A DNA stretch of 64,000 nucleotides, taken from NCBI GenBank assembly GCA_963738925.1, contig CAVTYE010000001.1, forward strand, positions 192,609 through 256,608, in the 5' to 3' direction. This DNA comes from an uncultured Chloroflexia bacterium (GTDB taxonomy: Bacteria > Chloroflexota > Dehalococcoidia > SM23-28-2 > RBG-16-64-32). Position 1 is the first letter of the stretch. Each line of letters opens with the position of its first letter. The translations under genes were made by a program, and so were the position numbers. Below are positions 11,309-63,063 of this stretch, piece by piece. A model generated the notes under the pieces. That model was not told where the DNA came from. It ran no database searches and saw nothing but the letters and a program-made list of their open reading frames with translations.

Positions 11309-11314
11309 TATAAT
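11309..11314 (+). promoter_or_regulatory. -10 box TATAAT 8 nt upstream of the RDD-gene ATG (candidate leaderless promoter)
   Basis: TATAAT at 11309-11314; ATG at 11323. Confidence 0.4.
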
Positions 11315-11322
11315 TGGCGACG

Positions 11323-11823
11323 ATGGCTACAATCGAACAAGCGCCGGTGTTCGAGAATCCAAGCCCGGAAGAGTACCTGGAGCTGCCTTATGCCGGCAGC
11401 GGACTGCGCATTGTCGCCGCGATTCTTGACCTGATCGTGCTCGGCTCTGTCTTTCTGCTTTTCGTCGCGGCCTCCGGCTTCTACCTCCTGACCCAGACGG
11501 ACTGGGGCAACGAGTCCACCTACACGAACTCTGAAGGCTACACGGCGATGGCGATCCTCTGCTCGTCGGCCTTCGTGGTCCCTATCTACTTCTTCTGCTG
11601 CTGGTGGTGGCGCGGCCAGAGCGTGGGCCAGATGGCCGTCCGCATCATGGTGACCGACCGCGATGGCTACCACCTGTCTGTCTCCCAGGCCTTGCGGCGC
11701 ACCTTCCTCTGGCCGCTCAGCGCCCTGCCGCTCGGCATCGGCTTCCTGACGATGTTCTTCGACCGCGAAGGGCGTACGTTGCACGACATGCTGTCCGGCA
11801 CCGTCGTCCTCGAAGTTCCCTGA
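11323..11823 (+). CDS. RDD family membrane protein
   Basis: The ORF track starts at TTG 11314; ATG 11323 is preferred. AGSGLRIVAAILDLIVLG...WWWRGQSVGQMAVRIMVTDRDG...REGRTLHDMLSGTVV is the RDD domain pattern. Confidence 0.8.
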   Translation: MATIEQAPVFENPSPEEYLELPYAGSGLRIVAAILDLIVLGSVFLLFVAASGFYLLTQTDWGNESTYTNSEGYTAMAILCSSAFVVPIYFFCCWWWRGQSVGQMAVRIMVTDRDGYHLSVSQALRRTFLWPLSALPLGIGFLTMFFDREGRTLHDMLSGTVVLEVP

Positions 11824-11910
11824 AGCCCTTCTCACAAAACTTTCACGTTTGGCTAATACTCTGGGCGCATGCTTACGCCCTGCAGACACGACCCTCCGGT
11901 AACGCTTTCG

Positions 11911-11916
11911 TATAAT
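11911..11916 (+). promoter_or_regulatory. -10 box TATAAT ahead of the first gene of the copper operon
   Basis: TATAAT at 11911-11916; GTG start at 11928. The -35 is weak. Confidence 0.3.
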
Positions 11917-11927
11917 CGGTAACGATC

Positions 11928-12431
11928 GTGCCTTCAACACGCCGGCGCCGTGGGCGCAACCGTAAACAAGGGATCATGGACAGCGCCTGGGGAGCAGTCC
12001 TGGGCCTGATCTTCGTGGCCTTCATCGCCGCCTCCTTCCTGCTTGGCCACATCACCGGCGCCAACGCGGGCGGCTGCGATAAGCCGCTGGCGGCGCTACC
12101 GGGCGGGACGACGATCTCCGCCGATGCCTTCATCGCCGAGGACGCCTCGCTCGCCCAAGTGATCGACTACTTGCAGAAGGGCGATTCCACCAGCGCCGAC
12201 AACACGTTCTACGGCCCCGTACACTCCTTTATGCACAACGCTGACCCGCCGATCCGCCAGGTTAGCGAGAGCCTGGCCCGGACGCTCTGCACCTCCGTCG
12301 TCCAGCTGGAGACGGACCTCCTGGCGGGGTCAGACGTCACCACTTACAAGCTCGCCGATGACACGGCGAAGGTCCGCGACGCCCTGCGCGATGGAGCCGT
12401 CGCGCTCGGCTACAGGAGGCCCGGCAGCTGA
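11928..12431 (+). CDS. membrane-anchored extracytoplasmic protein with an unrecognised Cys/H-x3-H helical domain (copy 1 of 4)
   Basis: Arg-rich N-tail (STRRRRGRNRKQG), one TM (WGAVLGLIFVAFIAASFLL), then CDKPL...FYGPVHSFMHNADPPIRQVSESLARTLCTSVVQLETD...DGAVALGYRRPGS. It is a clear paralogue of 18896..19450 and of both halves of 15587..16552. Confidence 0.7.
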   Translation: MPSTRRRRGRNRKQGIMDSAWGAVLGLIFVAFIAASFLLGHITGANAGGCDKPLAALPGGTTISADAFIAEDASLAQVIDYLQKGDSTSADNTFYGPVHSFMHNADPPIRQVSESLARTLCTSVVQLETDLLAGSDVTTYKLADDTAKVRDALRDGAVALGYRRPGS

Positions 12432-12811
12432 TGGCCACTCTCAGCCGTTACCTCAATCCGGCGCCGTCCCGGCGGGAGCGCCTGATTGCCTTTGGAGCCT
12501 GGTTTGTGCTGCTGGCCGCTCTCCTGCCGAACGTGACCTACATGGGCCACTGGCCGATCGGCGGTCTCGACGTTCACCTGGACTCCGGCGACGCCGCGGC
12601 CACGCTGGCCGAGCACGAGCAGCACTGCCACGTTGGGCCGGCCCACTGCGGCGGCGGCGAGAGCATGGTGGGCACACCCTTCGCCGGCGATGAGAGCGGC
12701 GCCCTCTCGCTCCCCGGCTCCGAGATCAAGTTCGATGCAGTCTACGATCAGCGCCCGCGGGACGGCTTCGCCGCGCGCATCCTCCAGCCGCCACAGGCCG
12801 CGTACCTCTAG
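12431..12811 (+). CDS. small membrane-anchored His/Cys-rich protein (putative metal-binding)
   Basis: 126 aa. The start overlaps the upstream stop (TGATG at 12429-12433). One TM (LIAFGAWFVLLAALLP), then HWPIGGLDVHLDS...EHEQHCHVGPAHCGGG. Confidence 0.6.
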   Translation: MATLSRYLNPAPSRRERLIAFGAWFVLLAALLPNVTYMGHWPIGGLDVHLDSGDAAATLAEHEQHCHVGPAHCGGGESMVGTPFAGDESGALSLPGSEIKFDAVYDQRPRDGFAARILQPPQAAYL

Positions 12812-12919
12812 CGTCCGCACGGAATTCAATCGCGCCCGCGCGATTCGGACGAATATCCAACATGCCTGCCTCGTGCTGTTTCCGCTCGGCCCGTGACCAG
12901 AGCGCCGCACGAGCGCACA

Positions 12920-13876
12920 ATGATAGGAAAGAGGAAACGTTTGACACTCAGAATTGCCGGATTCAGCGGCGGCGTAATCGTCGCCATCCTGGCGGCCCTG
13001 GCTGCCGTCACCATTGTTTCCGCCCACGCCAAGGTGACGGAAGTAGCATGGGACAACCCGACTAATCCAACGAAAGTCACGGCGACGGCGGTTGAAGAGA
13101 TCGCCGACACCGCCGGGACGTACTCGCTCAAGGTCTACAACTCCGACAACGTCGAGGTCGACAAGGGCGACACCACCATCGATCCTACGGACGCGACGAT
13201 GATGAGCGTCTCCGTCAACGCCAACCTGCCGAACGGCGTCTACCGGGTGGACTGGGCGACTGTCTCCGCCGGCGACGGAGACGCCGCCAACGATTCGCTT
13301 CAACTCGGGCTTGGCGTGGCGCTGACAACACCAAGCCCGACGCCGGCCCACAAGGCTTCGGTCACGGCGACGTTGACCGCGCTCAACAGCTCGGGCGTCA
13401 GCGGGACCGCCGTGCTAACTCCCACCGATGACGGCGGCACCGAGGTTGTGGTGAACCTCACCGGCCTGGCCCCCAACACGACCCACATCGAGCACGTGCA
13501 CGTGGGGGCCACGTGCGCCAGCCAGGCATCCCAGCTTGGCGATCACCTCGTAGACCTGGACGACATCACCGCTGACGCCTCCGGCAACGGAACGTCGGAC
13601 ACCGATGCGGATGTGGCTTTCGTAACGATCGCTGACGGGACCAACAAGATCGCCGTTCACGCCGGCCCGGACGCCTCGACGGACGCGAACAAAGTCCCCA
13701 TCGCCTGCGGGGCCATCCCCTCAGCCCTGACCGCAGCGACCGTCCCGTCCACCGGCGGCGCACCCGCGGCAGAGTCCTCGAGCTGGCTCCTCCTCGTGGT
13801 GTCCGGCTTCGCGATCTCAGCCACCGGATTCGCCGGCCTGGTGCTCTCCCGGCGGCGGGCGACTGAAGGCGACTGA
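12920..13876 (+). CDS. CopC-domain / Cu,Zn-superoxide-dismutase-like fusion protein with an LPXTG-like C-terminal sorting signal
   Basis: Start set to ATG 12920 (MIGKRKRLTL...). The signal peptide ends at SAHA-KV, with a CopC-like N-terminal His. CopC pattern LPNGVYRVDWATVSAGDGD. SodC-like GTAVLTPTDDGGTEVVVNLTGLAPNTTHIEHVHVGATC...IAVHAGPD...PIACGAIP. The tail is VPSTGG plus a hydrophobic stretch plus RRRATEGD. Confidence 0.8.
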   Translation: MIGKRKRLTLRIAGFSGGVIVAILAALAAVTIVSAHAKVTEVAWDNPTNPTKVTATAVEEIADTAGTYSLKVYNSDNVEVDKGDTTIDPTDATMMSVSVNANLPNGVYRVDWATVSAGDGDAANDSLQLGLGVALTTPSPTPAHKASVTATLTALNSSGVSGTAVLTPTDDGGTEVVVNLTGLAPNTTHIEHVHVGATCASQASQLGDHLVDLDDITADASGNGTSDTDADVAFVTIADGTNKIAVHAGPDASTDANKVPIACGAIPSALTAATVPSTGGAPAAESSSWLLLVVSGFAISATGFAGLVLSRRRATEGD

Positions 13877-13902
13877 TCCGGAACGAAGGAAGGAAGACGC
13901 AG

Positions 13903-14514
13903 ATGCTATCAAGAACGCAGGCGGCCGCAGCGACACTCATCGTGTCGCTGGCGGCCGCGTTGGGCATGCTGGTGCTGCTCCCGGCGGTTGGGGTCTCCGC
14001 CCACGCCGCCTACGACCACTCCACGCCGGAGGCCGATTCCGTGGTCGCAGCGGCGCCGGCCCAGGTCGATGTCTACTTCAAGCAGGAGATGGCGCGCGGC
14101 AACGGACTGCCAACACTGACCGTGGCCGCCGACAGCGGCGACATCGTCTCCGGGGACAGCGTGCTGGACGACAACGACCGTACTCACATGTCCGTCCCGC
14201 TGGACGCTGACCTCCCGGACGGGCGCTACACGGTGGTCTGGCACAACGTCTCGGCAGACGATGGCGACGAGGCCACCGGCGTGTTCTTCTTCTATGTCGG
14301 CAGCGGGCCGGAGCCATCTGTGACCGCGCCGCCCGGTTCAGCTACCACCGGGGCAACTGGCACACCCATCGCTACGGCAACCGTCAAACCGGCCGAGAAC
14401 GAAGACGGCGACAGCGGAGACATCCCCGTCTGGGGCCTGATCGCCGGCATCGTCGGCGGGCTGGTCGTCGGCGGCGGCGGTGGCCTCGCTTTTGGGAGAC
14501 GAGGCGGGAGTTGA
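13903..14514 (+). CDS. copC: CopC-domain copper resistance protein with a C-terminal membrane anchor
   Basis: SD AAGGAAGGAAG precedes the ATG. The signal peptide ends at VSAHA-AY. STPEADSVV...PDGRYTVVWHNVSADDGDEATGVFFFYVG is the CopC pattern, and there is a Gly-rich C-terminal TM. Confidence 0.85.
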   Translation: MLSRTQAAAATLIVSLAAALGMLVLLPAVGVSAHAAYDHSTPEADSVVAAAPAQVDVYFKQEMARGNGLPTLTVAADSGDIVSGDSVLDDNDRTHMSVPLDADLPDGRYTVVWHNVSADDGDEATGVFFFYVGSGPEPSVTAPPGSATTGATGTPIATATVKPAENEDGDSGDIPVWGLIAGIVGGLVVGGGGGLAFGRRGGS

Positions 14515-15587
14515 ACCGACGCTTGCTCGGGACTGTGGCCGCGTCAACGGTCGCCCTGGCGATCGTGCTGCTGGTCATCTCCTGTGCAAGCAAGACCGAC
14601 AACAATAAGCCCGGGACCGCGACGCCGACCGCGGTCCCGGGCTCGTCCACGCCGGCGCCCCGTGACGCCTACCTCATGTACCACGACGATCACAACGACA
14701 TCATCGTCCGCGACCTCGCCTCCGGAGCCACGTACACGCACGTTCCCGTTGACATCACGTCCGAAGTGATCGTGCAGACGCGCTGCTCGGATGACGGGAC
14801 CCGCATCGCCTACCTGGACCAGGTCTTCGCCGACGCCGCGCACCGCCGGATCATCATTCGCGGCGCCAACGCCCCGGCGGACCCGGTCACGGTCCCCGCG
14901 CAGACCCAGTGGATCGCCTGGTCGCCGGACGGCACCAGGTTGGCCGTGGTGCTCTGGGACAGCAAGGACAAGAAGGCCACCCTGGGCATCCTGGACGTCA
15001 ACAGCGGCGACCTCTCCACGATCATGGAGGGGGACCAGTACATCGGAAACATCGCCTGGTCACCGGCGGGCGACCGCATCGCCTTCTACCTGGAGAACAC
15101 CGCCAACACCAGCAGCGACATCTACACAATTGACGCGACCGGCCAGAACCTGGTCCAGCTGACCCACGGCAACGACGAAGTCACCTGGCTCGACCCATCC
15201 TGGTCCCCCGACGGCTCGACCATCCTGTCGGCCGGTGTGGAGAGCAATACGATCCAGCTCTACAACATCGACCCGAACAGCGGCGACTCCAGGCCGCTGA
15301 CATCGACCACTGATATCTACAAGCGAAACCCCTACTACTCCCCGGACGGCAGCATCATCGCCTACACCGGCTCCGTCGTCTTGCAGGGCGTTGCCGTTTC
15401 GGCGGACGCTCTGCACCAGTTCGCGATCTTCACGATCAACCCGGACGGCAGCGACGACAAGGCCCTCACCGCCGACCCGCGTGGCACAACGCCCGGGCCC
15501 AACGACCCGTACCTCAACGCATACATGCTCGGCTGGTGCGCCGCCGGGCCCTGGCTGGACGACCTGTGGACGGAGACAACGCCCTAG
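14511..15587 (+). CDS. TolB-like (PD40/WD40-like) beta-propeller lipoprotein
   Basis: The TTG start overlaps the upstream stop (TTGA). Lipobox LLVISC. Repeated W/YSPDG units are present: IAWSPDGTRLA, IAWSPAGDRIA, PSWSPDGSTIL and PYYSPDGSIIA. Confidence 0.8.
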   Translation: MNRRLLGTVAASTVALAIVLLVISCASKTDNNKPGTATPTAVPGSSTPAPRDAYLMYHDDHNDIIVRDLASGATYTHVPVDITSEVIVQTRCSDDGTRIAYLDQVFADAAHRRIIIRGANAPADPVTVPAQTQWIAWSPDGTRLAVVLWDSKDKKATLGILDVNSGDLSTIMEGDQYIGNIAWSPAGDRIAFYLENTANTSSDIYTIDATGQNLVQLTHGNDEVTWLDPSWSPDGSTILSAGVESNTIQLYNIDPNSGDSRPLTSTTDIYKRNPYYSPDGSIIAYTGSVVLQGVAVSADALHQFAIFTINPDGSDDKALTADPRGTTPGPNDPYLNAYMLGWCAAGPWLDDLWTETTP

Positions 15588-16552
15588 TGCTTCTGCACGT
15601 CGGTGCGACGACGCCGGCAGGCGTAGCGGCGGTGATCACCGTCATCTTTCTCCTCATCTTCGCGATGAGCTTCGCCTTCGGGCCCATCCCGGAAGGCAGC
15701 GGCCGGCTGGACAAGTCCTGGGTCCGGGCCTGGCTGCGCGCCTCGCTCCCCCGCTTCGCCATCGCCGGTGCCTTCGCCGGTGCCGTGCTGATCGGCGCTC
15801 TCGTCTGGGGCAGCGCCGGCTCCAGCTCCGCCTCGGGCTGCAACAACCCGCTGCCCCCGCTCACAGGCACATCCATCACCGACGCCCGGATCGTGCTCGC
15901 CATCCAGACCCTCAACGACATGGCCACCGCCGCCGACCAGGGCGACCGTGACCGCATCCGCACGCTCTTCTTCACCGAGGACGCGCACAACCTCTCCCAC
16001 GACATCGACCGGCCGCTGCGCCAGCTGGACGACAGCCTGGCGCGGCAGCTCTGCCAGAACGTGATCGCCCTGGAGAACCAGATCGCCGGGCCTGTCGACC
16101 CCGCCGCCGTCGCCATAGACGTCCGCGCCATCGCTGACAACTTCCAGCAGGCGCGCGGCATCCTCAGCGCCGGTTCTATCGTCACGCCCTCGGTCGCCGG
16201 CACCCTCGATCCCTGCTCGCAGCCTTTGCAGGCGATCACGACGGACCGGCTCACCCCGGAGCGGATTCAGTCCGCGATCGACGAGATGCGGCGGGCCGGC
16301 CAGCTGGCCGCGGCCGGGGACGAGGCCGGGGCGGAGGCCGCATTCGTCGCCGACCCGCACAACCTTACGCACGACATCGACGGCCCGCTGCGCGGCGTCG
16401 ATATGGGCCTGGCGCTCGACCTCTGCCACAGCATCGTCTCCATCGAACTGCACCTGGGTGACAAGTACGACGCCCAGGTGATGCAGACCGAGGCCGCCAG
16501 GAGCGCCGACTACCTGCAGCAGGCCGGCCAGGCGCTGGGGATCCTCTCGTGA
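15587..16552 (+). CDS. membrane-anchored protein with two tandem copies of the unrecognised Cys/H-x3-H domain (copies 2 and 3)
   Basis: GTG 15587 overlaps the upstream TAG (TAGTG); an alternative upstream start lies at 15536. After the TM segments: CNNPL...FFTEDAHNLSHDIDRPLRQLDDSLARQLCQNVIALENQ, then CSQPL...FVADPHNLTHDIDGPLRGVDMGLALDLCHSIVSIELH. Confidence 0.7.
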   Translation: MLLHVGATTPAGVAAVITVIFLLIFAMSFAFGPIPEGSGRLDKSWVRAWLRASLPRFAIAGAFAGAVLIGALVWGSAGSSSASGCNNPLPPLTGTSITDARIVLAIQTLNDMATAADQGDRDRIRTLFFTEDAHNLSHDIDRPLRQLDDSLARQLCQNVIALENQIAGPVDPAAVAIDVRAIADNFQQARGILSAGSIVTPSVAGTLDPCSQPLQAITTDRLTPERIQSAIDEMRRAGQLAAAGDEAGAEAAFVADPHNLTHDIDGPLRGVDMGLALDLCHSIVSIELHLGDKYDAQVMQTEAARSADYLQQAGQALGILS

Positions 16553-18933
16553 ACGTCAGGTCACGGCCGTGGTTCATTATTCTGCCGCTGATCGTGCTGG
16601 CGGGCTCCCTGGGGCTGCTGCTGGCGCCCGGCGGCGCGGAGGCGCACGCGCTGCTGATCCGCTCCGATCCGGCCCAGAACGCGCAACTCAAGGCGTCACC
16701 GGAGGACGTCACGGCGTTCTTCAGCGAGTCTCTGGACACAAACCTCTCTTCGCTCCAGGTCGTCGACGGCGGCGGCGCCAGCGTTGACGACGGCAACACA
16801 TCGTTCGGCCCGGACCCGGCCGAGATGTCGATCGGGATCAAGGGCACGCTGGACCCCGGCTTCTACACCGTGATCTGGGAGACGCTCTCCTCCGTGGACG
16901 GGCACCTCTTCAAGGGCTTCTACCCCTTCACCGTGCTCAACGCCGACGGCTCCCAGCCCAGCGGCCAGGCCTACCAGGGCGTCTCCACCGGCGGCACGAC
17001 CGCCAAGCCGGACACCGTTGGCGTGCGCTGGGGGCGGCTGCTCGGGATCGCCGCGCTGCTCGGCACGCTCGCCTTCTTCTCCATCGTCGTCACACCGTCG
17101 CTCGGCGAAGTGGAGGAGCCGTGGCGCGGCAACTGGCGCAAGGCGGCGCGCAAGCGGCTGTTCCAGGTGTCGCTGGCGGCCGCGGCGGCGCTAGTGGTCG
17201 TCGCGGCCGGGGAGCTGTACCTCCAGGCGCGCCAGGTCGGCGGCCTGGGCGATCTGGGCACGATCCTCAAGAACGACTGGGGCCAGCGCTGGATCCAGCG
17301 ACAGGTCGCTCTCGGCGCAATCGTCGCGGCGCTCGGCGTCGCCTACTACCTCTGGCAGCGCGGGCGCGACCGTCTCGGCGACGTCGCGGTCTGGGTGGCC
17401 CTGGCCGGGAGCTTCGTCTACGTCGCTCTGATCGCGCTGGTCAGCCACGGCGACTCGATCCCGGGGTCCTTCTGGGCAGTCGGCGCAGACTTCCTCCACA
17501 TCGCCGCTGCGTCGGTCTGGATCGGGATGCTGCTCCAGCTCGCGCTCTTCCTCTTCTGGCTGCGCCACAACATCCCGCGCGAGGCCAAGGCCGACCTGCA
17601 GGCCAGCCACCTCCAGCGCTTCTCGACGATCGCCGCCACCAGCGTCGTTGTCCTGCTGGCCACAGGCACGGCCAACGCGGCCAGCCAGATCCCGGACTGG
17701 AGCTCCCTCTACGACACGGCCTACGGGCGAGCGCTCCTGGTCAAGCTCGGGATCATGTGCGTGCTGCTGCTCGCCGCCGCCGCCAACGCCTTCTATCTGC
17801 GCCCGCGTATCGTCGACGAGGCCGACGAAGGCAAGCCCGCAGACGAGCTGCGCCGCCGGATGACGCTTGCCGTGCGGATCGAGCTGGCACTGGGGATCGC
17901 GGTCCTCTGCGCCGCGGCCGTTCTCGTCCTCTACCCGACGTCCCGCCAGGAACGCGACGCCGAGGCCTTCCAGCAGGCCAGCACCTCCGCCGTCGTCGGC
18001 TACGAGATCACGCAGCCGACGAACAGCAACGACCTGCTGGTGGACTTCACGGTGTCCCCCAACACGGCGGGCTTCAACTCCTTCCGGGTCTTCCTCTTCG
18101 CGATCGGCAGCGACGCCATCCCGGCGGACAGCTCGCAACCGGGCGGCGTCCTCAAGGTGCGAATGAAGATCTACAACCGCAGCGCGGACTTCGGGCAGCA
18201 GATCGTGGAGATGGATCCGGTGGGCGGGAGCCTGCCGTCATACAAGGCCGCCGGGGCGTTCCTGCAGCAGGCGGGGCAGTGGGAGATCGACGTCACCGTC
18301 CAGCGCCGCGGCCTCGACGACGAGACGGTTACGATCTCCGTCCCGGTCCAGGCGGTCGGGGCCGGCCAGGGCCAGTTCGAATACCCGCTCACCCTGGGCT
18401 CGTGGCTTTCGGTGGCCGCCGCGGCGATTCTTGTGCTGGCGCTCATCGTCGCCGCCTGGGTGACGGAATGGCCGGGACGAATGCCGCGCATCTCGCCGCG
18501 TTTTCTCCGCGTCGGCACGGCCACCTTCACCGTGCTGGGCGTCGGCCTTCTGGCCATCAGCCTGATCCCCGGCAGCAAGACCGTGAGCGGCAACCCGATC
18601 GATTCATCGCCGCAATCGATCGCGGCCGGGCAGCAGCTGTACCAGCAGAACTGCTCGCGCTGCCACGGCATCAACGGCGACGGCCACGGCACCGACGCCG
18701 CCAACCTGACCACCCAGCCCGCGGACTTCCGCGTGCACATCCCCTATCACACAGACGACCTCTTGTTTAGATTCATATCGAACGGGATTGGCACAATCAT
18801 GCCAGCCTGGGGTACGGTTCTTACGGAGGACGACCGCTGGAACATTCTCAACTACTTGCACTACGCTTTCGGACAGGATGGACAACCGATTTCTGATGGT
18901 TCACCAACTGCAACTCCAATCCCCACTCCCTAA
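16549..18933 (+). CDS. CopC-CopD fusion (YcnJ-like) with an Ig-like extracytoplasmic domain and a C-terminal class I cytochrome c
   Basis: GTG overlaps the upstream stop (GTGA). The N-terminus AHALLIRSDPAQNAQL...GFYTVIWETLSSVDGH is CopC. About 8 TM helices follow (CopD). FTVSPNTAGFNSFRVFLF...WEIDVTVQRRG is tentatively a YtkA/FixH-like domain. After a further TM region, LYQQNCSRCHGINGDGHG...IMPAWG supplies CXXCH and a Met ligand. Confidence 0.85.
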   Translation: MNVRSRPWFIILPLIVLAGSLGLLLAPGGAEAHALLIRSDPAQNAQLKASPEDVTAFFSESLDTNLSSLQVVDGGGASVDDGNTSFGPDPAEMSIGIKGTLDPGFYTVIWETLSSVDGHLFKGFYPFTVLNADGSQPSGQAYQGVSTGGTTAKPDTVGVRWGRLLGIAALLGTLAFFSIVVTPSLGEVEEPWRGNWRKAARKRLFQVSLAAAAALVVVAAGELYLQARQVGGLGDLGTILKNDWGQRWIQRQVALGAIVAALGVAYYLWQRGRDRLGDVAVWVALAGSFVYVALIALVSHGDSIPGSFWAVGADFLHIAAASVWIGMLLQLALFLFWLRHNIPREAKADLQASHLQRFSTIAATSVVVLLATGTANAASQIPDWSSLYDTAYGRALLVKLGIMCVLLLAAAANAFYLRPRIVDEADEGKPADELRRRMTLAVRIELALGIAVLCAAAVLVLYPTSRQERDAEAFQQASTSAVVGYEITQPTNSNDLLVDFTVSPNTAGFNSFRVFLFAIGSDAIPADSSQPGGVLKVRMKIYNRSADFGQQIVEMDPVGGSLPSYKAAGAFLQQAGQWEIDVTVQRRGLDDETVTISVPVQAVGAGQGQFEYPLTLGSWLSVAAAAILVLALIVAAWVTEWPGRMPRISPRFLRVGTATFTVLGVGLLAISLIPGSKTVSGNPIDSSPQSIAAGQQLYQQNCSRCHGINGDGHGTDAANLTTQPADFRVHIPYHTDDLLFRFISNGIGTIMPAWGTVLTEDDRWNILNYLHYAFGQDGQPISDGSPTATPIPTP

Positions 18934-19450
18934 CGTCTTCTTCTCGCAGCGCCGGCGCAGCGGCCGCCAACGGGCTGCCCAGCGGGGCGGCGCCAGCCTG
19001 CCGGACTGGGTCTGGGGCGCCGGCCTGGGCGTCATCGTCCTGATCTTCGTCGGCGGGTTCTTCTTCTTCAGCAGCGTCACCGGCTCCAGCGCCACCTGCG
19101 ACAAGGCTCTCGGATCGCTGGGACAGAGCAACCTGGACGCGACCGGGTTCGCCGAAGAAGATGCGGCGCTGGGTCACGTAATCGATTTCCTCAACCAGGG
19201 CGACATCAACGCCGCCACCAATTCGTTCTACGGCGACACTCACAACTTCATGCACAACGCCGACCCGGCGATCCGCGCCGTGGACGAAGGCCTGGCCAAG
19301 AACCTCTGCAACGCCGTCATCCAGCTCGAGACGGATATCGAACCGTCCGCCGGCAAGACCACGGCCGTGATGGCCGCCGACGCGAACCTCGTCCGCAAGT
19401 ACCTGGGCGATGGCGCGGTGGCGCTGGGCTATCCGCGGCCGGGATCGTAG
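18896..19450 (+). CDS. membrane-anchored protein with the unrecognised Cys/H-x3-H domain (copy 4)
   Basis: The ORF track starts at 18788, inside the upstream gene; I trimmed it to ATG 18896, but the start is uncertain. Arg-rich tail SQRRRSGRQRAAQRGG, then a TM, then CDKAL...FYGDTHNFMHNADPAIRAVDEGLAKNLCNAVIQLETD...DGAVALGYPRPGS. Confidence 0.7.
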   Translation: MVHQLQLQSPLPNVFFSQRRRSGRQRAAQRGGASLPDWVWGAGLGVIVLIFVGGFFFFSSVTGSSATCDKALGSLGQSNLDATGFAEEDAALGHVIDFLNQGDINAATNSFYGDTHNFMHNADPAIRAVDEGLAKNLCNAVIQLETDIEPSAGKTTAVMAADANLVRKYLGDGAVALGYPRPGS

Positions 19451-19460
19451 GAGGGCTGCC

Positions 19461-20249
19461 ATGGGACAACTGGACGGACGTGTCGCGATCGTCACCGGGG
19501 CCAGCCGGGGCATCGGCAAGGAGATCGCGCTGCTCTTCGCCCGCGAAGGCGCCAGCGTCGTCGTCGCCGCGCGCACCGAACACGAAGGCGAGCACCAGCT
19601 CCCCGGCGGCATCTCCGAGACCGTAGCCGAGGCGCGAGCCGCCGGCGGCGAGGCCACGGCCGTGCGCGCGGACATCTCGCAGCCGGCCGATATTGAGCGC
19701 CTGGTCGCCGCTGCTCACGAGGCGTACGGCCCGGTCGACGTTCTGGTCAACAACGCCGCGCTAACCTACTACATCCCGATCGCCGAGCTCCCGCTCAAGC
19801 GCTGGCAGCGGATGCTGGACGTCGATATCACTGCGCCGTTCCTCCTGGCCCAGGCCGTGATCCCGGACATGATCGCGAAGGGCCACGGCAACATCGTCAA
19901 CATATCCTCGCTGGCGGCGCGGCACCCGGAGGGCCCTCCCTACGCCATGGCCCCGCGCGGCGGCACGACCTACGGCGTCGTCAAGGCTGGGATCGAGCGC
20001 TTCAGTTCAGGCCTGGCCCACGAGCTCTTCGACAAGCACATCGCCGTCAATTCGCTGGCCCCTACCGGCGTCGTCGCCTCGCCGGGTGTGATGTTCCACC
20101 GCCTGATCGAGAGCGAGGACGACCCCCGCGCCGAGCCGGTGGAGTACATGGCCCGGGCCGCCCTGATCCTGGCGACTTGCTCCGCCGATGAGATCACCGG
20201 CCGCATCACCTACAGCCAGTCGCTCCTGAAGAAACACGGCCAGCTCTAG
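19461..20249 (+). CDS. SDR family oxidoreductase
   Basis: Start set to ATG 19461, preceded by GTAGGAGGG. MGQLDGRVAIVTGASRGIGKEIA (TGxxxGxG), NNAA, and YGVVKAG (YxxxK). Confidence 0.85.
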   Translation: MGQLDGRVAIVTGASRGIGKEIALLFAREGASVVVAARTEHEGEHQLPGGISETVAEARAAGGEATAVRADISQPADIERLVAAAHEAYGPVDVLVNNAALTYYIPIAELPLKRWQRMLDVDITAPFLLAQAVIPDMIAKGHGNIVNISSLAARHPEGPPYAMAPRGGTTYGVVKAGIERFSSGLAHELFDKHIAVNSLAPTGVVASPGVMFHRLIESEDDPRAEPVEYMARAALILATCSADEITGRITYSQSLLKKHGQL

Positions 20250-27667: not shown

Positions 27668-30600
27668 TTACGCCGTCAGCTGGCGGTACAGCGTGGTAAT
27701 CCGCGACGGCAGCGACTCGATGTCAGGCACCACTTCGTAACCGATGTCGGCGCACATCGTCTTCAGGTAGTCGTGGCCGTAGCGGTCCACGGTCAGACAG
27801 AACGGCACCATCCCCTTGCGCTTGGCCTCCATCAGCGCCATGTGCGTGTCGTGGATCGCGTACTCCTTCTCCGTGCGGTCGCGGCCGTAGCCGTGGTCCT
27901 GCGGCCGCCCGTCGGAGACAAGAAAGAGGATCCGCACCTTGGAGTCGTGCGCCTCCAGCTTGGCGGTGGCGTGGCGGATCGCCGGGCCCATCCGGGTGGA
28001 GCGGACCGGCGCAATCTTGTCGATCCGCCTCTTCACCACCTCCCCGAACTGCTCCTCGAGGTCTTTGACGACGTAGAACTCGACGTTCTCGCGGCCGTAG
28101 CCTGAGAACCCGTAGATGCCGTAGCTGTCGCCGATCGTCTCCAGCGCCTTGATCAGGAGGACGATGCTCTCTTTCTCCAGGTCGATAATGCGCTTCGGCG
28201 GCGTCAGCAGCTCCTGGGCGCGGCGGGCCATCCACCAGGAGAAGTAGCGGCGCGGGTCGTCGTCGAACTCGTCTTGCTGGTACTTGCGCTCATGCTTGGC
28301 GATCTCTTCGTCGGTCGATGCGCTCATGTCCAGCAGGAAGGCGACGCTGACGTCGCGCTCGATCTTGTTGCGGCGCCAGTAGACCTTGTCCGTCGGCGTG
28401 ACGCCGGCCCGCCTCTCGACGGCGTAGTCCGTGACAGCGTCGAAGTCGATCTCTTCGCCGTCCTGCAGCCGCTTGATCTTGCGGAACGTCTCCGGCCGCA
28501 GCAGCTCGAACTGGCGGCGGGTCTGGCCCACCAGCGAGGCGTAGCGTGACAGCGTCTGCTCGTAGTAGTTGGCCGCGCCCTCACCGACGTTGTACTCGAC
28601 GATACGGCACCAGCGCGGCCGGTAGTCGCCGGCGCGGAAGTCCCACTCGTCGTAGAAGAAGTACTTGGGCTCGTTGGCCAGCTCGTGGTCGTCGTCCTCG
28701 GTGCTGAGTCCGGTCACGGGCTGACCGTCCTTGAGCGGCATCGGCTGCGGCTTCTGAGCTTTGTCCTGCTGCTGTTGCTGGTTCAGCTCCTTGATCAGGT
28801 TAGTCAGGAACAGCTCGGAGGACTGAGTGAGGTCGGCCTCGGCCATGTCGGAGATCGTGATCTCCACGCTCTTTTCCAGCATCTGCTTGAGCTGCTCCGG
28901 CGAAAGCGGGGAGGCGTTCTCCTTGTCCTGGCGCTGGTTGCGCAGCTTCATCAGCAGCTGCACGGTCTCCGGTTTGAACTCGCCGCGGAAGTCGACGGGC
29001 TGGGGGCTTTCGTAGGGGACCGGCTCGCCCTGTGGCATATCGATGTTCATGTCGTTGCCCGCGGCGTCGGAGGTCATCGGCGAGAGGTCCATGTCCTCGC
29101 TGTACTCCTGCCACTCCTCCATCTGGTCTTCGGGGAAGAGGTTCGGGATCTTTTCAGCGATCTGGTAGAGCCGCAGCGTCGCCTCCGCGGCGTCTTCCAC
29201 CGTGGCCTCGCCGCCGGGGGCAGTCTGCAGCGTGCCGACGACGCCGACAGCCTCGTGCATGATCGGCATCAGCTGCTCCGGCCAGAGGACGTGCTCCAGA
29301 CCGCCGAGGCTGGCTCGCACCATGTTCTCCACAAAGGCCTGGCGCAGCGGCATCTGCTCCACTTCCGGTCGGCGGCCCAGCTCGCGCTCCTGGCGCTGGC
29401 CGTAAGGCAGGCGGATGCCGCCGTACTCCCTGCCGATCAGCACATCGATCCGAGCGTCCTCAACTATCGCGAAGAGGTCGGACGCCAGGCGCCGGTCCGG
29501 GAAGAGATCGAAGAAGCGCTCCATGTCCGTGAGCGGCTCGCGGGTGACCGGGAGCGCCTCGCCGGGCTCAGACACGTGGCCGTCGGAGTCCAGCGGCGGT
29601 TGCACACCCTCAACCGGGATCCGCTGCTCCTCGAGGGCGTGACGGAGCGGCGGAAAGACGACGCCTTCGCGGTCGAACTGGAAGTCAAAGGTGCCGAACT
29701 CCAGGTGCCCGGCCTGGTGGGTGCAGTAGACCTTGTAGACGCGGAAGTTGGCGTCCTTGTCCGGGAACTCTTCGATGTGCGGCGGCAGGAAGATCGCGCT
29801 GCCCTCTGTGGAAGGCGCTTCCGTCTCCACCCAGCCGATCCCTTTTTCGGCCAGCGCCTCAGCGGGATGAACGGCCACGTCGGCGCCGGTCAGCGCCTTC
29901 CCGTACATGCGGAGGATGTCGGCGACCTTGCTTAGCTCCACCCGCGACGACAGCGACTCCAGCACCTCTTCGCCACGGCTGGACTCCATGCGGAAGTAGG
30001 CCTCACCGCCTTCTGTGCTCTGGTCGAGGAGGCTGCTGCCTACGCCGTGCCAGTCGGCGATCGTGTCGATCGGGATGCGGTCGAGAACGCCGGAGGCCGT
30101 CTTCAGGAACTCCATCGCAGCAAGCGGGGAGCGCACAACGAGGTCTTCGGCCAGCGAGAGCAGCAGGCCGTGCGACTCCTGGTCGACTGTGGCCAGAGCA
30201 CGCGCAGCCTCCGCGAAGAATGTGAACGCCTGCCTGCCCTCGCGCCGGGCCAGCTCCCGCGAAAGCTCCAGGAAGCGGCCGCGCTGCATCTGCTGGATGT
30301 TGGCCAGCAGCCCCGGTCCCTTCTCCAGGTAGGAGCGCGCGTCCGCCCAGCCGGTGGAGGCCAGCGCCTCGGCGAAAGTCAGGAAGGCGGCGCGGTCTTC
30401 GCCGGTCAGCGGCTCCAGCGAGGTGGCGGCGATGCTCAAGCAATGTGAGGCGAGGTCATATGAGCGGTCGCAGAGGGCATCGACGAAACGGACGAGGATG
30501 CGCGCCTCCTCGACGCTGAGCTTGGCGAAGAGCTGGGGGCTGCCGTCGAAGAACTGGACGGCCAGCGAAGCCGACCGCCACGTGCCCTTGTAGAGCAGCC

Positions 30601-30982
30601 GGCCCAGCGCCATCCAGTCGGAGAGGCGGGCCAGGGTGATCGAAGGCAACGTGCCCGGCGAGGCGCGAAAGTAAGAGGCGGCCAGCGCCGAAGACAGCTC
30701 GGCGAGCTCACGCCCGTGCTCCGCCCAGCGCTGAAACCCGATACTCCCCAGCATCGGCAAGAGCTGCGGAGTTACCCGGTAGTACTCTCCGGCGGCCTCC
30801 CAGGAGCGCCAGGACTGCTTGGCCAGCTCCAGCCCGCCCTCGGCCCAGGCCTTGAGCTCGTCATCGGTGAGCTGGTCGCCGATGGCGTCGGCGGCCTTGC
30901 GGAACTCCGCGACCAGGCTCGTCGAAAAGGGCGTGAGCTGCTTGTCGTAGTAGGCGTAGGTCTTCTGGCGCTCGTCGGTCAT
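27668..30982 (-). CDS. large CbbO/NorD-like protein with a C-terminal von Willebrand factor A domain
   Basis: 1104 aa. The long helical N-terminal region has CbbO/NorD-like features (LRMYGKALTG..., TEGSAIFLPPHI). The C-terminal VWA domain has the MIDAS motif VAFLLDMSASTDE...LFLVSDGRPQD. Confidence 0.8.
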   Translation of the reverse strand: MTDERQKTYAYYDKQLTPFSTSLVAEFRKAADAIGDQLTDDELKAWAEGGLELAKQSWRSWEAAGEYYRVTPQLLPMLGSIGFQRWAEHGRELAELSSALAASYFRASPGTLPSITLARLSDWMALGRLLYKGTWRSASLAVQFFDGSPQLFAKLSVEEARILVRFVDALCDRSYDLASHCLSIAATSLEPLTGEDRAAFLTFAEALASTGWADARSYLEKGPGLLANIQQMQRGRFLELSRELARREGRQAFTFFAEAARALATVDQESHGLLLSLAEDLVVRSPLAAMEFLKTASGVLDRIPIDTIADWHGVGSSLLDQSTEGGEAYFRMESSRGEEVLESLSSRVELSKVADILRMYGKALTGADVAVHPAEALAEKGIGWVETEAPSTEGSAIFLPPHIEEFPDKDANFRVYKVYCTHQAGHLEFGTFDFQFDREGVVFPPLRHALEEQRIPVEGVQPPLDSDGHVSEPGEALPVTREPLTDMERFFDLFPDRRLASDLFAIVEDARIDVLIGREYGGIRLPYGQRQERELGRRPEVEQMPLRQAFVENMVRASLGGLEHVLWPEQLMPIMHEAVGVVGTLQTAPGGEATVEDAAEATLRLYQIAEKIPNLFPEDQMEEWQEYSEDMDLSPMTSDAAGNDMNIDMPQGEPVPYESPQPVDFRGEFKPETVQLLMKLRNQRQDKENASPLSPEQLKQMLEKSVEITISDMAEADLTQSSELFLTNLIKELNQQQQQDKAQKPQPMPLKDGQPVTGLSTEDDDHELANEPKYFFYDEWDFRAGDYRPRWCRIVEYNVGEGAANYYEQTLSRYASLVGQTRRQFELLRPETFRKIKRLQDGEEIDFDAVTDYAVERRAGVTPTDKVYWRRNKIERDVSVAFLLDMSASTDEEIAKHERKYQQDEFDDDPRRYFSWWMARRAQELLTPPKRIIDLEKESIVLLIKALETIGDSYGIYGFSGYGRENVEFYVVKDLEEQFGEVVKRRIDKIAPVRSTRMGPAIRHATAKLEAHDSKVRILFLVSDGRPQDHGYGRDRTEKEYAIHDTHMALMEAKRKGMVPFCLTVDRYGHDYLKTMCADIGYEVVPDIESLPSRITTLYRQLTA

Positions 30983-58513: not shown

Positions 58514-59543
58514 TTACGCCTTCTTCAGCTCCTGGACGATGAAGGCCAGCCGCTCGTGGTCCTCCGGCGTGCGGATGCCGAAGCCGAAGTCGAGCGTGGT
58601 CACGACACCGCCGAAGCGCTGCTTGATCTTCGGCACGAGCTGATCGTACGTCCCGATGATCGCGAACTCCTCCAGCATCTCGTCGGTGATCGCCTTTGCC
58701 ATCTCCGGCCACTTGCCTTCCATGGAGAGGCGGAACAGCTGTCTGCCCGGCGTCCTGCCAGCCGTGGACCTCCAGCACCGGGTGGTAGGCCCGCGTGGAG
58801 GCGTAGAAGGACAGCTGCTGGCGGACCGGGGCCTTGGCGCGCTCCACCTCCTCCTCGTTCTTGCCGGTGATGATGAAGCTGCCGCCGACGATGTCGATGT
58901 CCGAGAGCTTGCGGCCCGCCTTCCTGGCGCCTGCCTCGATCTCCGGCAGGATCACTTCTTTGGTGTACTTGGTCGTGTTGAAGCCGTGCATGCGGATGCC
59001 GTCGCAGACCTCACCAACGAGGCGGCAGTTGTAGCGGTTGACGGCGGAGATGTAGATCGGGACGTGGCCGTCGGCGTTGGGGCCGGGGTTGAAGAACGGC
59101 GCGATCAGGTTGAACTGGTAGTGCGGGCCGGTGTGAAACGTCGGCCTGGAGCCGGCTTCCTGGAACGTCTTGAAGATCGCCTTCATGGTCAGGATGTAGT
59201 CCTTGAAGCGCGGCCCCGGCGGCGAAGGCCAGGGCGTGGAGTAGCGGCGCTCGTTGTGGCCCTTGACCTGCGTGCCCAGGCCCAGGATGAAGCGCCCGCC
59301 GGAGAACCGCTGCAGGTCCCAGGCCAGCTGCGCCGTCACCATCGGGCTGCGCGGAAAGGCGATCGCCACCGCCGTGCCGAACTTCATCTTCTGAGTGTGC
59401 TCCGCGACGACTGTGAGCGGCAGGAACGGGTCGTGCCCGGCCTCCGGCGTGACCACGGAGTCGTAGCCGATCTCTTCCAGGCGACGGGCCTGCTCGGCGT
59501 ACGCAACAAGGTTCTGGGCGAGGATAGTCGTCTCGACTTGCAT
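58514..59543 (-). pseudogene. LLM-class (luciferase-like, probably F420-dependent) oxidoreductase; frame broken by a 1-nt indel near 58742-58745
   Basis: From ATG 59543: MQVETTILAQNL...GRFILGLGTQVKGHNERRY...VLEVHGWQDAG, then nonsense. The second frame continues QLFRLSMEGKWPEMAKAITDEMLEEFAIIGTYDQLVPKIKQRFGG (ORF 58514..58723). Length is 1030 nt, which is 3n+1. Confidence 0.8.
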
Positions 59544-59706
59544 GGCGTTCCTTTCCGGTTCCTGCGTGCGCACCGAAGTCTATTTGTTGATATCCGGGGT
59601 GTAAAGACGCGCCCGCCCGCCGCGATGCGGAATAATGCCGGCAGTGAGACCTCTCCGCGCCAACGGGAGCAGCCGCCGGATGCCAGCGCGCAAGGGGCGT
59701 TAACCA

Positions 59707-60777
59707 GTGCGCCTGGAGGTCTCCTATCGGGCGATTATAGTCATCGCCCTGCTGGCCCTGGCGATCATCCTCTTCGCCCGCCTCTGGCCGATCATCGTCA
59801 TCGTCCTCACCTCGTTCATCTTCATGACGGCGCTGCTGCCGTACGTGGAGTGGCTTACCGCGCACAAGATCCCACGCATCGCCTCGGTGCTGGTCGTGAT
59901 GCTGACGATCCTGGCTATCCTGGCCGGCATCGCCGGGCTGGTCGGCACCGCGTCCGTCAACGAGTTCCAGAACGTGCGCGACAACCTGCCGGAGAACGCC
60001 AAGGACGCCGAGGACCTGCTGGACAAGTTCGGCATTCACGTTGAGCTGCAAGAGCGCGCCCGCAACATCAACTGGAACCGCATCATCTCCGGCGACGCCG
60101 CCATCAACTACGGCCAGCGCGCCGTCACGATCGTCTTCGGGCTGATCACGGTCTACGTGCTGACGGCGTACCTTCTAGCCGACACGCCGCGGATGAACCG
60201 CTTTCTCTACCAGTTCGTGCCGCCGGGCCGCGAGCCGGAGGTCGAACGCTGGCTGCAGTCTCTGCGCACGGTTGTCGGCGGCTACATTCGCGGCCAGGTG
60301 ATCACCAGCGCCGTGATCTCAGTGTTCACCTTCGTCGTGTTGACCGCCGTCGGCGTGCCGAACGCGGCAGCCTTCGCCGTGCTCGCCGGCTTCGTCGATA
60401 TCATCCCGATCGTCGGCGCGGTCATCGCAGTCGTCATGCCGACGCTGGCCGCTTTCCAGGAATCGACCACGCAGGCGATAATTGTCCTAGTCCTGCTCCT
60501 CCTCTACCAGCAGTTCGAGGACCGCCTGCTGACCCCGCGCGTCTACGGCCAGACGCTGAACCTGCCGCCGGTCATCGTGCTGGTGGCGGTGCTGATCGGC
60601 GGCCAGCTGTTCGGCATCCCGGGCGTCCTGCTGGCGCTTCCGGCGGCCGCGGTGGCCAGGGTTGCGCTGGACTACTACCTGGAGCAGCGGCGCAGGTTCA
60701 CTTTCGAGACGGCGCGCGTTGCCACGGACGAGATCGGCGCGCCGGACAGGCGAGGCGAGGACCAGGCGAAAGGATGA
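59707..60777 (+). CDS. AI-2E family transporter (PerM/UPF0118)
   Basis: 356 aa, about 8 TM, with FVDIIPIVGAVIAVVMPTLAA...GGQLFGIPGVLLALPAAAV. Confidence 0.85.
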   Translation: MRLEVSYRAIIVIALLALAIILFARLWPIIVIVLTSFIFMTALLPYVEWLTAHKIPRIASVLVVMLTILAILAGIAGLVGTASVNEFQNVRDNLPENAKDAEDLLDKFGIHVELQERARNINWNRIISGDAAINYGQRAVTIVFGLITVYVLTAYLLADTPRMNRFLYQFVPPGREPEVERWLQSLRTVVGGYIRGQVITSAVISVFTFVVLTAVGVPNAAAFAVLAGFVDIIPIVGAVIAVVMPTLAAFQESTTQAIIVLVLLLLYQQFEDRLLTPRVYGQTLNLPPVIVLVAVLIGGQLFGIPGVLLALPAAAVARVALDYYLEQRRRFTFETARVATDEIGAPDRRGEDQAKG

Positions 60778-61001: not shown

Positions 61002-61333
61002 GCGGTCTTGCCGCGACGGCCGCCGAAGACGAGCCCGGCGCCGGTGGCCAGCAGGATCGTCGGCAGCGAGAGGATGATCGGCCAGCCGATGTCGCCGAGC
61101 ACGAATAATCCGAGAAAAGCGAGGGCCAGGCAGAGCGCCGTCTCAAACCGCAGCACGGCTTCGCGACGCCGGGGGCCCGGCAGCACGGAGTAGACGACAG
61201 CCGGCACAAACGTCAGCGTCAGCACCCCGAAGAGCACGGCAAGCCACCTGGAACTGTCCTTTGGATCGACCGTGGCGATGACCGTCAGCAGGCCAAAGGT
61301 GCCGGTGGCCCAGAGCCCGCCGGCGAGGCCCAT
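60998..61333 (-). CDS. small polytopic membrane protein
   Basis: ORF 60998..61558 trimmed to ATG 61333, because the longer form overlaps the acyl-CoA ligase 3' end and is Arg-rich. MGLAGGLWATGTFGLLTVIATV...; 3-4 TM helices. Confidence 0.6.
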   Translation of the reverse strand: MGLAGGLWATGTFGLLTVIATVDPKDSSRWLAVLFGVLTLTFVPAVVYSVLPGPRRREAVLRFETALCLALAFLGLFVLGDIGWPIILSLPTILLATGAGLVFGGRRGKTA

Positions 61334-61469
61334 ATACGAGATCCGCGCCCCGTCTGGTTCCGCCGGCGCCGAGCCGGCCTCGGCGACCGCCGGTGACTCC
61401 ACCGCGTCCGGGGCGACGGACGCCCTCCTCGCCCGGCGCGAGGTGCGTTCCCGGCGGGCGGCCTTTCGC

Positions 61470-63038: not shown

Positions 63039-63063
63039 CTGCTTCCCCTTCAGCGCGAGGCGG

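Follow-up and report, generated by a model that had tools for sequence, protein, structure and literature searches.

Among the described copper systems, those closest to the locus reported here centre on CopC and CopD. YcnI of Bacillus subtilis (ycnKJI) is a membrane-anchored chaperone: it binds Cu(II) through histidine and carboxylate ligands, exchanges it with the YcnJ CopC domain and requires its membrane anchor (PMC12362106; PMC13344008). The site of copper reduction in the YcnI/YcnJ system was stated as an open question (PMC12362106). YebY of Escherichia coli (yobA-yebZ-yebY) holds two strictly conserved cysteines in a disulfide and is found in and outside copper operons (PMC8689200). Here, a gene cluster of an uncultured Chloroflexota bacterium was analysed, located at positions 11928-19450 of a 64,000-nucleotide stretch of contig CAVTYE010000001.1 (the window). 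It comprised eight open reading frames (ORFs) on the plus strand, named g1 to g8 (Table 1), all co-directional and several overlapping. In kind it is a familiar CopC/CopD copper cluster; what sets it apart is an accessory domain family not described before and an unusual transporter fused to cytochrome c.

Like the copCD/pcoCD systems, the cluster encoded CopC and CopD over the Pfam thresholds in co-directional, overlapping genes. It differed in its transporter, a three-part CopC-CopD-cytochrome c fusion (g7), and in two additional CopC proteins that stand alone and have DGD instead of DGH. A TolB-like propeller, a small His/Cys transmembrane protein and the new domain were additional components, and no CopA, CopB or CopRS was noticed among the flanking genes examined. 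With YcnI/YcnJ it shared membrane-anchored extracytoplasmic accessories encoded beside a CopC-CopD fusion, and the best match in the Protein Data Bank (PDB) for the CopC domain of g3 was the YcnJ CopC domain (9c14, E 1.8e-6). However, there was no sequence relationship to YcnI: its family, DUF1775, had no match to g1, g6 and g8 within E 0.1, nor did it occur among the matches listed (25 best families) for 69 and 56 family members at E up to 1. YcnI has an N-terminal monohistidine brace (PMC12362106), whereas the domain of the window was predicted to be all-helical with an internal H-x3-H. YcnJ is a CopC-CopD-YtkA protein, whereas g7 ended in cytochrome c with no YtkA domain recognised, and no YcnK-type regulator was adjacent to the cluster. 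YebY resembled the domain proteins as a small extracytoplasmic protein encoded with CopC and CopD homologues, with two conserved cysteines that form a disulfide in YebY and probably do so here, and with a family spread over copper operons and unrelated contexts. It differed in its MlbQ-like fold, as opposed to the predicted four-helix bundle, and in lacking the conserved His/His/Asp/Glu set. DUF2511 (YebY, pfam10709) was not matched by g1, g6 or g8 and was absent from the matches listed (25 best families) in the 69- and 56-member scans.

The new domain spanned about 115 amino acids and was present in four copies in three membrane-anchored proteins: once each in g1 and g8 and twice in g6. g1 and g8 were 51% identical (E 5e-45), and in BLASTP comparisons g1 matched the two halves of g6 with E 1e-11 and 2e-7. 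These similarities were far above chance and bear out an earlier note on this DNA, which had described a shared domain of about 110 amino acids and close paralogy of g1 and g8. The motif spacing given there, H-x3-H-x-D, was incorrect; the residues are spaced H-x3-H-x2-D (HSFMHNAD, HNLSHDID), and the fuller motif consists of H-x3-H-x2-D-x3-R in helix 2 followed by LC...E in helix 3. Conservation of these positions, also proposed earlier, was close to absolute. In 131 copies from 78 homologues, both histidines, the second cysteine and the glutamate were essentially invariant, the first cysteine was present in 99%, and the aspartate and the arginine in 98% each. Realignment of all matches of a profile search gave 212 full-length copies, in which the glutamate was conserved in 212, the second histidine in 210, the first histidine in 208, both cysteines in 208, the aspartate in 201 and the arginine in 200.

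The two cysteines, 71 residues apart, had been regarded as candidate metal ligands or a redox-active pair. Their distribution pointed elsewhere. Distant members without the helix-3 cysteine were also without the first one, and two proteins that kept the first cysteine (P0185 and P0203) had another cysteine in place of the arginine. A positively charged N-terminal tail and a transmembrane helix precede the domain, which is therefore expected to face outward. Covariation and outward topology together make a structural disulfide more likely than metal ligation or a redox-active pair, and the two cysteines most likely join the N-terminal segment to helix 3. As an operational definition, the family comprises four-helix bundles of about 115 amino acids preceded by a signal anchor or lipobox; helix 2 bears H-x3-H-x2-D(-x3-R), and helix 3 the invariant glutamate. 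The clade linked to CopCD additionally carries the cysteine pair, and all four copies in the window showed every defining feature.

An AlphaFold2 model of domain copy 1, built on a 42-sequence alignment (A1), was a four-helix up-down bundle with a mean predicted local distance difference test (pLDDT) score of 95.7 and a predicted template-modelling score (pTM) of 0.89. The helices comprised residues 18-36, 40-65, 67-89 and 92-112, and an extended N-terminal segment carried the first cysteine. Helix 2 held the His/His/Asp/Arg stripe, and helix 3 the second cysteine and the invariant glutamate. Site geometry was estimated solely from a calculation of hydrophobic moment and helical periodicity on the alignment. 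By this measure, the histidines, aspartate and arginine lay on an exposed flank of helix 2, turned 100-160 degrees away from its hydrophobic side, and on helix 3 the glutamate was 45 degrees and the second cysteine 65 degrees from the core face. These angles fit an accessible site between helices, where both histidines and the glutamate may meet, better than a buried core.

The model of g6 (pLDDT 85.8) showed transmembrane helices at residues 10-28 and 43-76, followed by two four-helix bundles. Nearly all of its 59 homologues were about 320 amino acids long. The earlier description of an Arg-rich tail and one transmembrane helix in all three domain proteins does not apply to g6, which has two such helices with an Arg-rich loop between them; for g1 the tail depends on the start codon, GTG 11928 or ATG 11976. 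In the membrane hairpin of g6 (15587-15830), L3, F21, S28-F29-A30, P35, W49, S53 and R56 were invariant among 56 homologues of 39-81% identity. Such conservation exceeds the need of a plain anchor and suggests intramembrane contacts, perhaps with CopD.

The domain was not placed in any named family, in agreement with the earlier note. g1, g6 and g8 had no Pfam or NCBIfam match, and scans of 10 distant members and of 69 (alignment A2) and 56 (A5) family members yielded no match over threshold in either library. PDB searches with the single sequence and with profiles of the domain returned nothing significant, and Foldseek searches of PDB with the domain and g6 models gave no match at E <= 0.001. 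Full-text literature searches found no paper describing the domain or the cassette. It is an undescribed accessory domain family, real and narrowly distributed.

Several sub-threshold candidates were followed up and rejected. For the single domain, the Foldseek matches were generic bundles, the best being PsbQ/CyanoQ of photosystem II (E 0.31, TM-score 0.60). This is the closest solved fold, an up-down four-helix bundle of about 110 residues, with 9-13% identity, an unshared motif and another biological context. One PsbQ chain was matched by phmmer at E 0.04 with a single sequence and none with family profiles. The top Foldseek match of the two-domain g6 model was E. coli EfeO (E 0.31), and two distant members matched NCBIfam EfeO at E 0.04-0.07. 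EfeO/EfeM (Peptidase_M75) of the EfeUOB iron uptake system is likewise a periplasmic helical bundle partnering a membrane metal permease, and in one low-confidence hhalign alignment the HxxE glutamate of E. coli EfeO was aligned with the invariant glutamate. The hhalign probability was 5.6-9.8% against alignment A6 (11 sequences: efeO of E. coli plus ten homologues from plasmids), with inconsistent regions and other histidine positions, and 0.9-1.2% against E. coli EfeO alone; homology was unsupported. DUF7547 (PF24414) was matched by 21 of 56 g6 homologues at E up to 1, the best score being 24.4 bits (P0037) against a cut-off of 27. The domain proteins of the window itself did not match it, and TAL_effector was matched by as many members, which indicates compositional noise. 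DUF7547 is uncharacterised and was not mentioned in any paper found by full-text literature searches. Readings as HD-domain, hemerythrin-like, DinB-like or cytochrome b562-like proteins were discarded on misfitting ligand sets and spacings and the lack of a profile match.

Relatives were collected at several depths. A word-index search of 5.8 billion proteins gave 19 clusters with g1/g8 as query and 59 with g6; the few named matches were proteins of Chloroflexota or Dehalococcoidia metagenome-assembled genomes (MAGs), and the rest were unnamed metagenome proteins. A further search of this type with A2 was dominated by words from membrane helices and contributed little. When 1.84 billion cluster representatives were searched exhaustively with a profile, 171 matched at E <= 1e-3, of which 106 reached E <= 1e-10; almost all were single-domain proteins of 90-230 amino acids with a signal anchor or lipobox ahead of the domain. 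Genomes and metagenomes were scanned with one narrow peptide pattern, so these scans report closer relatives only. Among 185,579 GTDB species genomes, 12 loci were detected, all in Chloroflexota or Dehalococcoidia MAGs, and the metagenome scan (14-sequence alignment A4) gave 43 loci.

Linkage to the transporter gene was pronounced. A CopC-CopD-cytochrome c gene was found within 190 bp of the domain gene in all 12 GTDB loci and in 32 of the 43 metagenome loci, the adjoining g7 orthologues being 39-79% identical. Four further metagenome loci lay in a CopC/g2/propeller cassette, most of them ended by the contig end. The conserved cassette had the order RDD, [g1], g2, a variable gene, CopC, propeller, g6, CopC/CopD/cytochrome c, g8 and short-chain dehydrogenase, with one to four domain copies. 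Locus L068 lies on a contig of 217 kb; there, the gene of a domain protein with 28% identity overlapped the end of the CopC-CopD-cytochrome c gene by 8 nucleotides. The order there was His-rich transmembrane protein, CopC, CopCD-cytochrome c and domain gene, flanked by unrelated fatty-acid metabolism genes. The expected proximity of homologues to copC/copD was hence observed: the Cys-containing clade overwhelmingly adjoined CopC-CopD-cytochrome c, including L068 with its different neighbourhood. The idea that g1 and g8 bracket the cluster did not hold. g1 was seen only here and in L011/L034 and is a lineage-specific duplicate; the conserved layout is g6 and g8 flanking g7. We read the locus as an extracytoplasmic cluster for copper handling, conserved by vertical descent in Chloroflexota (Dehalococcoidia-type).

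The central gene of the cluster is g7. Its CopC part (Pfam E 2e-15, 58.0 bits) and its CopD part (residues 354-459, E 1.7e-22, 80.2 bits) exceeded the Pfam gathering cut-offs of 23.3 bits for CopC (PF04234) and 32.1 bits for CopD (PF05425). Against NCBIfam CopD it scored 96 bits, under the equivalog cut-off of 195. The cytochrome c part at residues 690-770 (PF13442 / PF00034) scored 54.9 and 45.3 bits (Cytochrome_CBB3 E 1.1e-14) and contained a CSRCH haem-attachment motif (CxxCH). g4 was a CopC protein with a Pfam E of 1.3e-15 (58.6 bits) and an NCBIfam CopC E of 3.2e-15. The earlier assignments of g4 and g7 therefore stand, and that of g3 as CopC-SodC-like stands in part. The CopC domain of g3 was barely over the cut-off (E 2.7e-5, 25.5 bits), and its Cu/Zn superoxide dismutase (SOD) part remained below it, with 21.3 bits against 28.9 for Sod_Cu (PF00080), E 4e-4, and E 0.011-0.07 for SOD chains of PDB. 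The C-terminal half (13390-13876), which contains HIEHVHVG, is at best SOD-like. In related loci g3 had no full-length match; its CopC part alone was matched, and other genes held its position. The PSTGG-hydrophobic-RRR tail of g3 resembled a sorting or anchor signal, with only NCBIfam GVDTG_CTERM at E 0.054.

D-x-H, here DGH, is a ligand motif of CopC. DGH was found in the CopC domain of g7 only, whereas g3 and g4 had DGD, as did the standalone CopC of L068. This hints at lower-affinity or differently coordinated Cu(II) sites in the standalone proteins that may feed the fused domain. All three CopC domains showed A-H-A at the predicted signal cleavage site, with histidine as the first residue after the predicted cut. 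A histidine in first mature position forms the Cu(II) histidine brace of CopC (PMC12362106).

Two companion genes recurred with the domain. g5, the eighth gene, left unnamed before, encoded a TolB/PD40-like propeller (Pfam PD40 E 2.8e-12; NCBIfam TolB propeller E 8.6e-23, which stays under the cut-off for equivalogs) and directly preceded g6 homologues in most loci. g2 had been listed as a recognisable copper protein. It carried the motifs GHW and H-x2-HCH-x-G-x-x-HCGG, and Pfam, NCBIfam and PDB gave no match; its link to copper consists of motif and synteny. By tblastn, g2 homologues occupied the same position in most of the longer related cassettes (e.g. L001 7401-7766), with conserved LLPN-x-x-Y-x-GHW and HCH-x-G-x-x-x-CGG. 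A Cys-free variant (GHGHVGP...GHVHDF) stood at the g2 position of L068 (3584-4021). g2 may be a second undescribed copper-site protein.

Taken together, the domain proteins are probably a new copper-handling helper. The His/His/carboxylate site on the exposed flank would bind a metal, most plausibly Cu(II), and the membrane-anchored proteins would capture copper as accessory chaperones. The CopC domains in g7, g4 and g3 would be their partners in Cu(II) exchange, a role similar to that of YcnI beside YcnJ or of YebY in its operon, and the cytochrome c fused to g7 could provide the electron that reduces Cu(II) before passage through CopD, presumably inward. That the domain proteins are membrane-tethered extracytoplasmic accessories of a CopCD importer, binding metal, most likely Cu(II), and exchanging it with the CopC domains while cytochrome c reduces it, is a proposal we consider evenly balanced. 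We hold more tentatively, and as somewhat less probable than its negation, the most specific form of it: an unrecognised copper module, a disulfide-stapled bundle with a surface two-His/carboxylate Cu(II) site, within a reductive import machine containing CopC proteins and a built-in cytochrome c reductase.

Several observations weigh against a copper function. Motifs that typify Cu(I) binding, Met-rich or CxxC, were absent from the domain, and its His/carboxylate ligands would fit Zn, Fe, Ni and Mn as well as Cu(II). An accessory linked to CopCD may have low copper affinity, as in YebY (PMC8689200). Six metagenome loci had no copper genes in the available DNA, many Chloroflexota loci share flanking RDD and adh_short genes and are non-independent, and L003 (8282-11446) and L047 (5355-8357) retained CopC, propeller, g6 and g8 without a CopD gene. 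The Cys-free relatives examined all stood in non-copper contexts, and most of them retained H-x3-H-x2-D and the glutamate. Two separate relatives showed a conserved order of their own, OMPdecase, DUF951, domain protein and BFN_dom nuclease. Instances of the OMPdecase-DUF951-BFN_dom arrangement were L004 3353-3703 and L007 2213-2689, as well as L005, L006, L008 and L009, with no copper genes nearby. A further relative stood in a PrsA/UvrD neighbourhood of a low-GC organism. The motif alone is consequently no diagnostic of copper, and the conserved site is older than, and unspecific to, the copper association.

The domain fell into no known family, its residues were well conserved and its genes were linked to copC/copD; none of these three computed outcomes refuted the idea of the earlier note. 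Its proposal of an undescribed accessory of CopC/CopD (chaperone, sensor or metallo-oxidoreductase) is partly supported: the new family, the conserved site and the linkage hold, the role suggested for the cysteines is unlikely, the bracketing by g1 does not hold, and the motif does not by itself indicate copper. The computational checks that it had suggested largely bore it out.

The foremost alternative, unlikely on balance yet to be taken seriously, is a non-metal structural or regulatory subunit. Its His/Asp/Arg/Glu stripe would be a protein-protein interface for docking either to g7, at CopC, CopD or cytochrome c, or to the propeller, and the subunit would assemble or gate the transporter with no copper bound to it. 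The conserved residues do lie on an exposed flank outside the core, and Asp-x3-Arg could be a simple salt bridge. The g6 hairpin, much more conserved than a plain anchor, fits docking at least as well as copper handling. g6 and g8, differently anchored, lie on either side of the transporter gene, an arrangement common for genes of subunits, and YebY binds copper weakly. However, two histidines one helical turn apart and a carboxylate of the neighbouring helix were nearly absolute across very divergent members, including those without a CopCD neighbour, which is more like a ligand site.

Distribution bears on a further, improbable explanation, a general-purpose extracytoplasmic bundle for another metal or a small ligand whose adjacency to copCD is inherited synteny. 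It would account for the distant members in unrelated, themselves conserved contexts, for mid-range members without copper neighbours (L023, L025/26, L037, L056 and L063) and for the common flanks of the Chloroflexota loci. Yet the pairing with CopCD-cytochrome c persisted in L068 despite wholly changed flanks and outlasted gain and loss of other cassette genes down to about 29-40% orthologue identity. In addition, gene overlaps of 1-8 nucleotides indicate co-translation, and copies varied from one to four per cassette while still standing beside copCD.

Still less probable is a redox or electron-transfer module with a metal or haem, acting with the fused cytochrome c as cupric reductase or oxidase, possibly through a redox-active cysteine pair. 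The domain adjoins a transporter bearing a c-type cytochrome, and redox cofactors are common in four-helix bundles. Against this, histidines one turn apart on the same helix cannot both be axial ligands of one haem iron, and the ligands are too few for a binuclear site. The cysteines are far apart in sequence and dispensable in distant members, CxxC and CxxCH are absent, and cytochrome b562, hemerythrin and ferritin-like families were not matched significantly. Membership as a highly diverged PsbQ/CyanoQ-like, EfeO/EfeM imelysin-like (M75) or DUF7547 protein is very improbable: the Foldseek, phmmer, NCBIfam and DUF7547 matches given above speak for it, but none was significant, PsbQ was lost with a profile, EfeO stayed below 10% in hhalign and TAL_effector was as frequent as DUF7547.

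The features of the locus are listed in Table 1. The eight co-directional ORFs and the four overlaps that had been claimed were all found, the latter by reading the sequence. g1 and g2 overlap in TGATG at 12429-12433, the TTG start of g5 at 14511 lies over the g4 stop codon at 14512-14514, the GTG of g6 at 15587 shares one base with TAG 15585-15587, and the GTG of g7 at 16549 lies over TGA 16550-16552.

Table 1. Coordinates of genes, domain copies and a putative regulatory element of the cluster in the window.
Feature	Position	Strand	Description
g1	11928 or 11976..12431	+	Signal-anchored, single domain; lineage-specific paralogue of g8
g2	12431..12811	+	Small protein with one transmembrane helix and His/Cys motifs; in no named family
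g3	12893..13876	+	CopC, sub-threshold Cu/Zn-SOD-like domain and C-terminal PSTGG-transmembrane-RRR anchor
g4	13903..14514	+	CopC protein; signal peptide, C-terminal transmembrane anchor
g5	14511..15587	+	TolB/PD40-like beta-propeller lipoprotein
g6	15587..16552	+	Two-helix membrane hairpin, then two tandem domain copies
g7	16549..18933	+	CopC-CopD-cytochrome c fusion
g8	18878..19450	+	190 amino acids, signal-anchored, single domain
Domain copy 1 (g1)	12063..12428	+	AlphaFold2 four-helix bundle; alignment columns
Domain copy 2 (g6a)	15827..16192	+	BLASTP against g1, E 1e-11; alignment A1
Domain copy 3 (g6b)	16205..16549	+	BLASTP against g1, E 2e-7; alignment A1
Domain copy 4 (g8)	19085..19447	+	51% identity of g8 to g1; alignment A1
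Putative promoter/operator	11897..11924	+	Direct repeat flanking TATAAT, read from the sequence

g1 comprised 151 amino acids from ATG 11976 or 167 from GTG 11928. In the database gene call of the window's own g1 (P0001) the start was ATG 11976, with an AAGGG motif upstream, and in that of g8 (P0015) it was ATG 18878. The GTG is a possible start, as the relatives P0011 and P0133 carry Arg-rich tails. The start of g6 is most likely GTG 15587 because its homologues begin with MLLH. The RDD gene and g1 are separated by 150 bp, in which a direct repeat of 8 bp, CGGTAACG, occurred at 11897-11904 and 11917-11924, 20 bp apart, around a perfect TATAAT (11911-11916). This element could be a promoter with operator; a scan for consensus promoters and terminators was uninformative and made no call at 11897-11924. 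If it is a promoter, GTG 11928 would have next to no leader, and the start would more likely be ATG 11976 with its AAGGG motif.

The upstream RDD-family gene (11314-11823) was as syntenic in related loci as the short-chain dehydrogenase downstream. The ORF of the latter (19410-20249) overlapped the end of g8 by 41 nucleotides as listed, and at 68-87% identity it came after g8 in nearly all related loci of Chloroflexota; the transcription unit may therefore continue past the eight genes. In sister Dehalococcoidia cassettes, a 272-amino-acid multi-pass membrane protein stood at the g1 position (L001 6554-7372), and a 177-amino-acid His-rich helical lipoprotein ending in HDAWHELQH at the g3 position (L001 7833-8366). 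The lipoprotein was rejected as a relative of the domain (hhalign probability 6%, transmembrane region only). Elsewhere in the window, long ORFs at 27668-30982 (minus strand), 61272-63209 and 58656-60044 (both plus strand) encoded 1104, 645 and 462 amino acids. They had no Pfam match at E <= 1e-5 and are putative genes in a sequence of 66% GC.

CopC/CopD copper acquisition, the accessories that feed it and the site of Cu(II) reduction are open questions in the field (for the last point, PMC12362106). The cluster contributes a small domain that should be easy to express, has a confidently predicted fold and an obvious set of candidate ligands and rarely occurs away from CopC-CopD-cytochrome c genes, and a transporter bearing its own c-type cytochrome. 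The reach is limited to a small family, so far mostly of uncultured Chloroflexota. If the domain binds copper, it would be a new fold among the extracytoplasmic copper chaperones (CopC, PCuAC, YcnI, Sco and CusF) and would allow a family of the Pfam type to be defined for about 170 clusters that are at present annotated as 'hypothetical protein'. If it does not, a conserved subunit-like partner of the transporter would still deserve a name. Should the reductive-import reading be true, reduction of CopC-bound Cu(II) before CopD would be hard-wired into the transporter of these bacteria.

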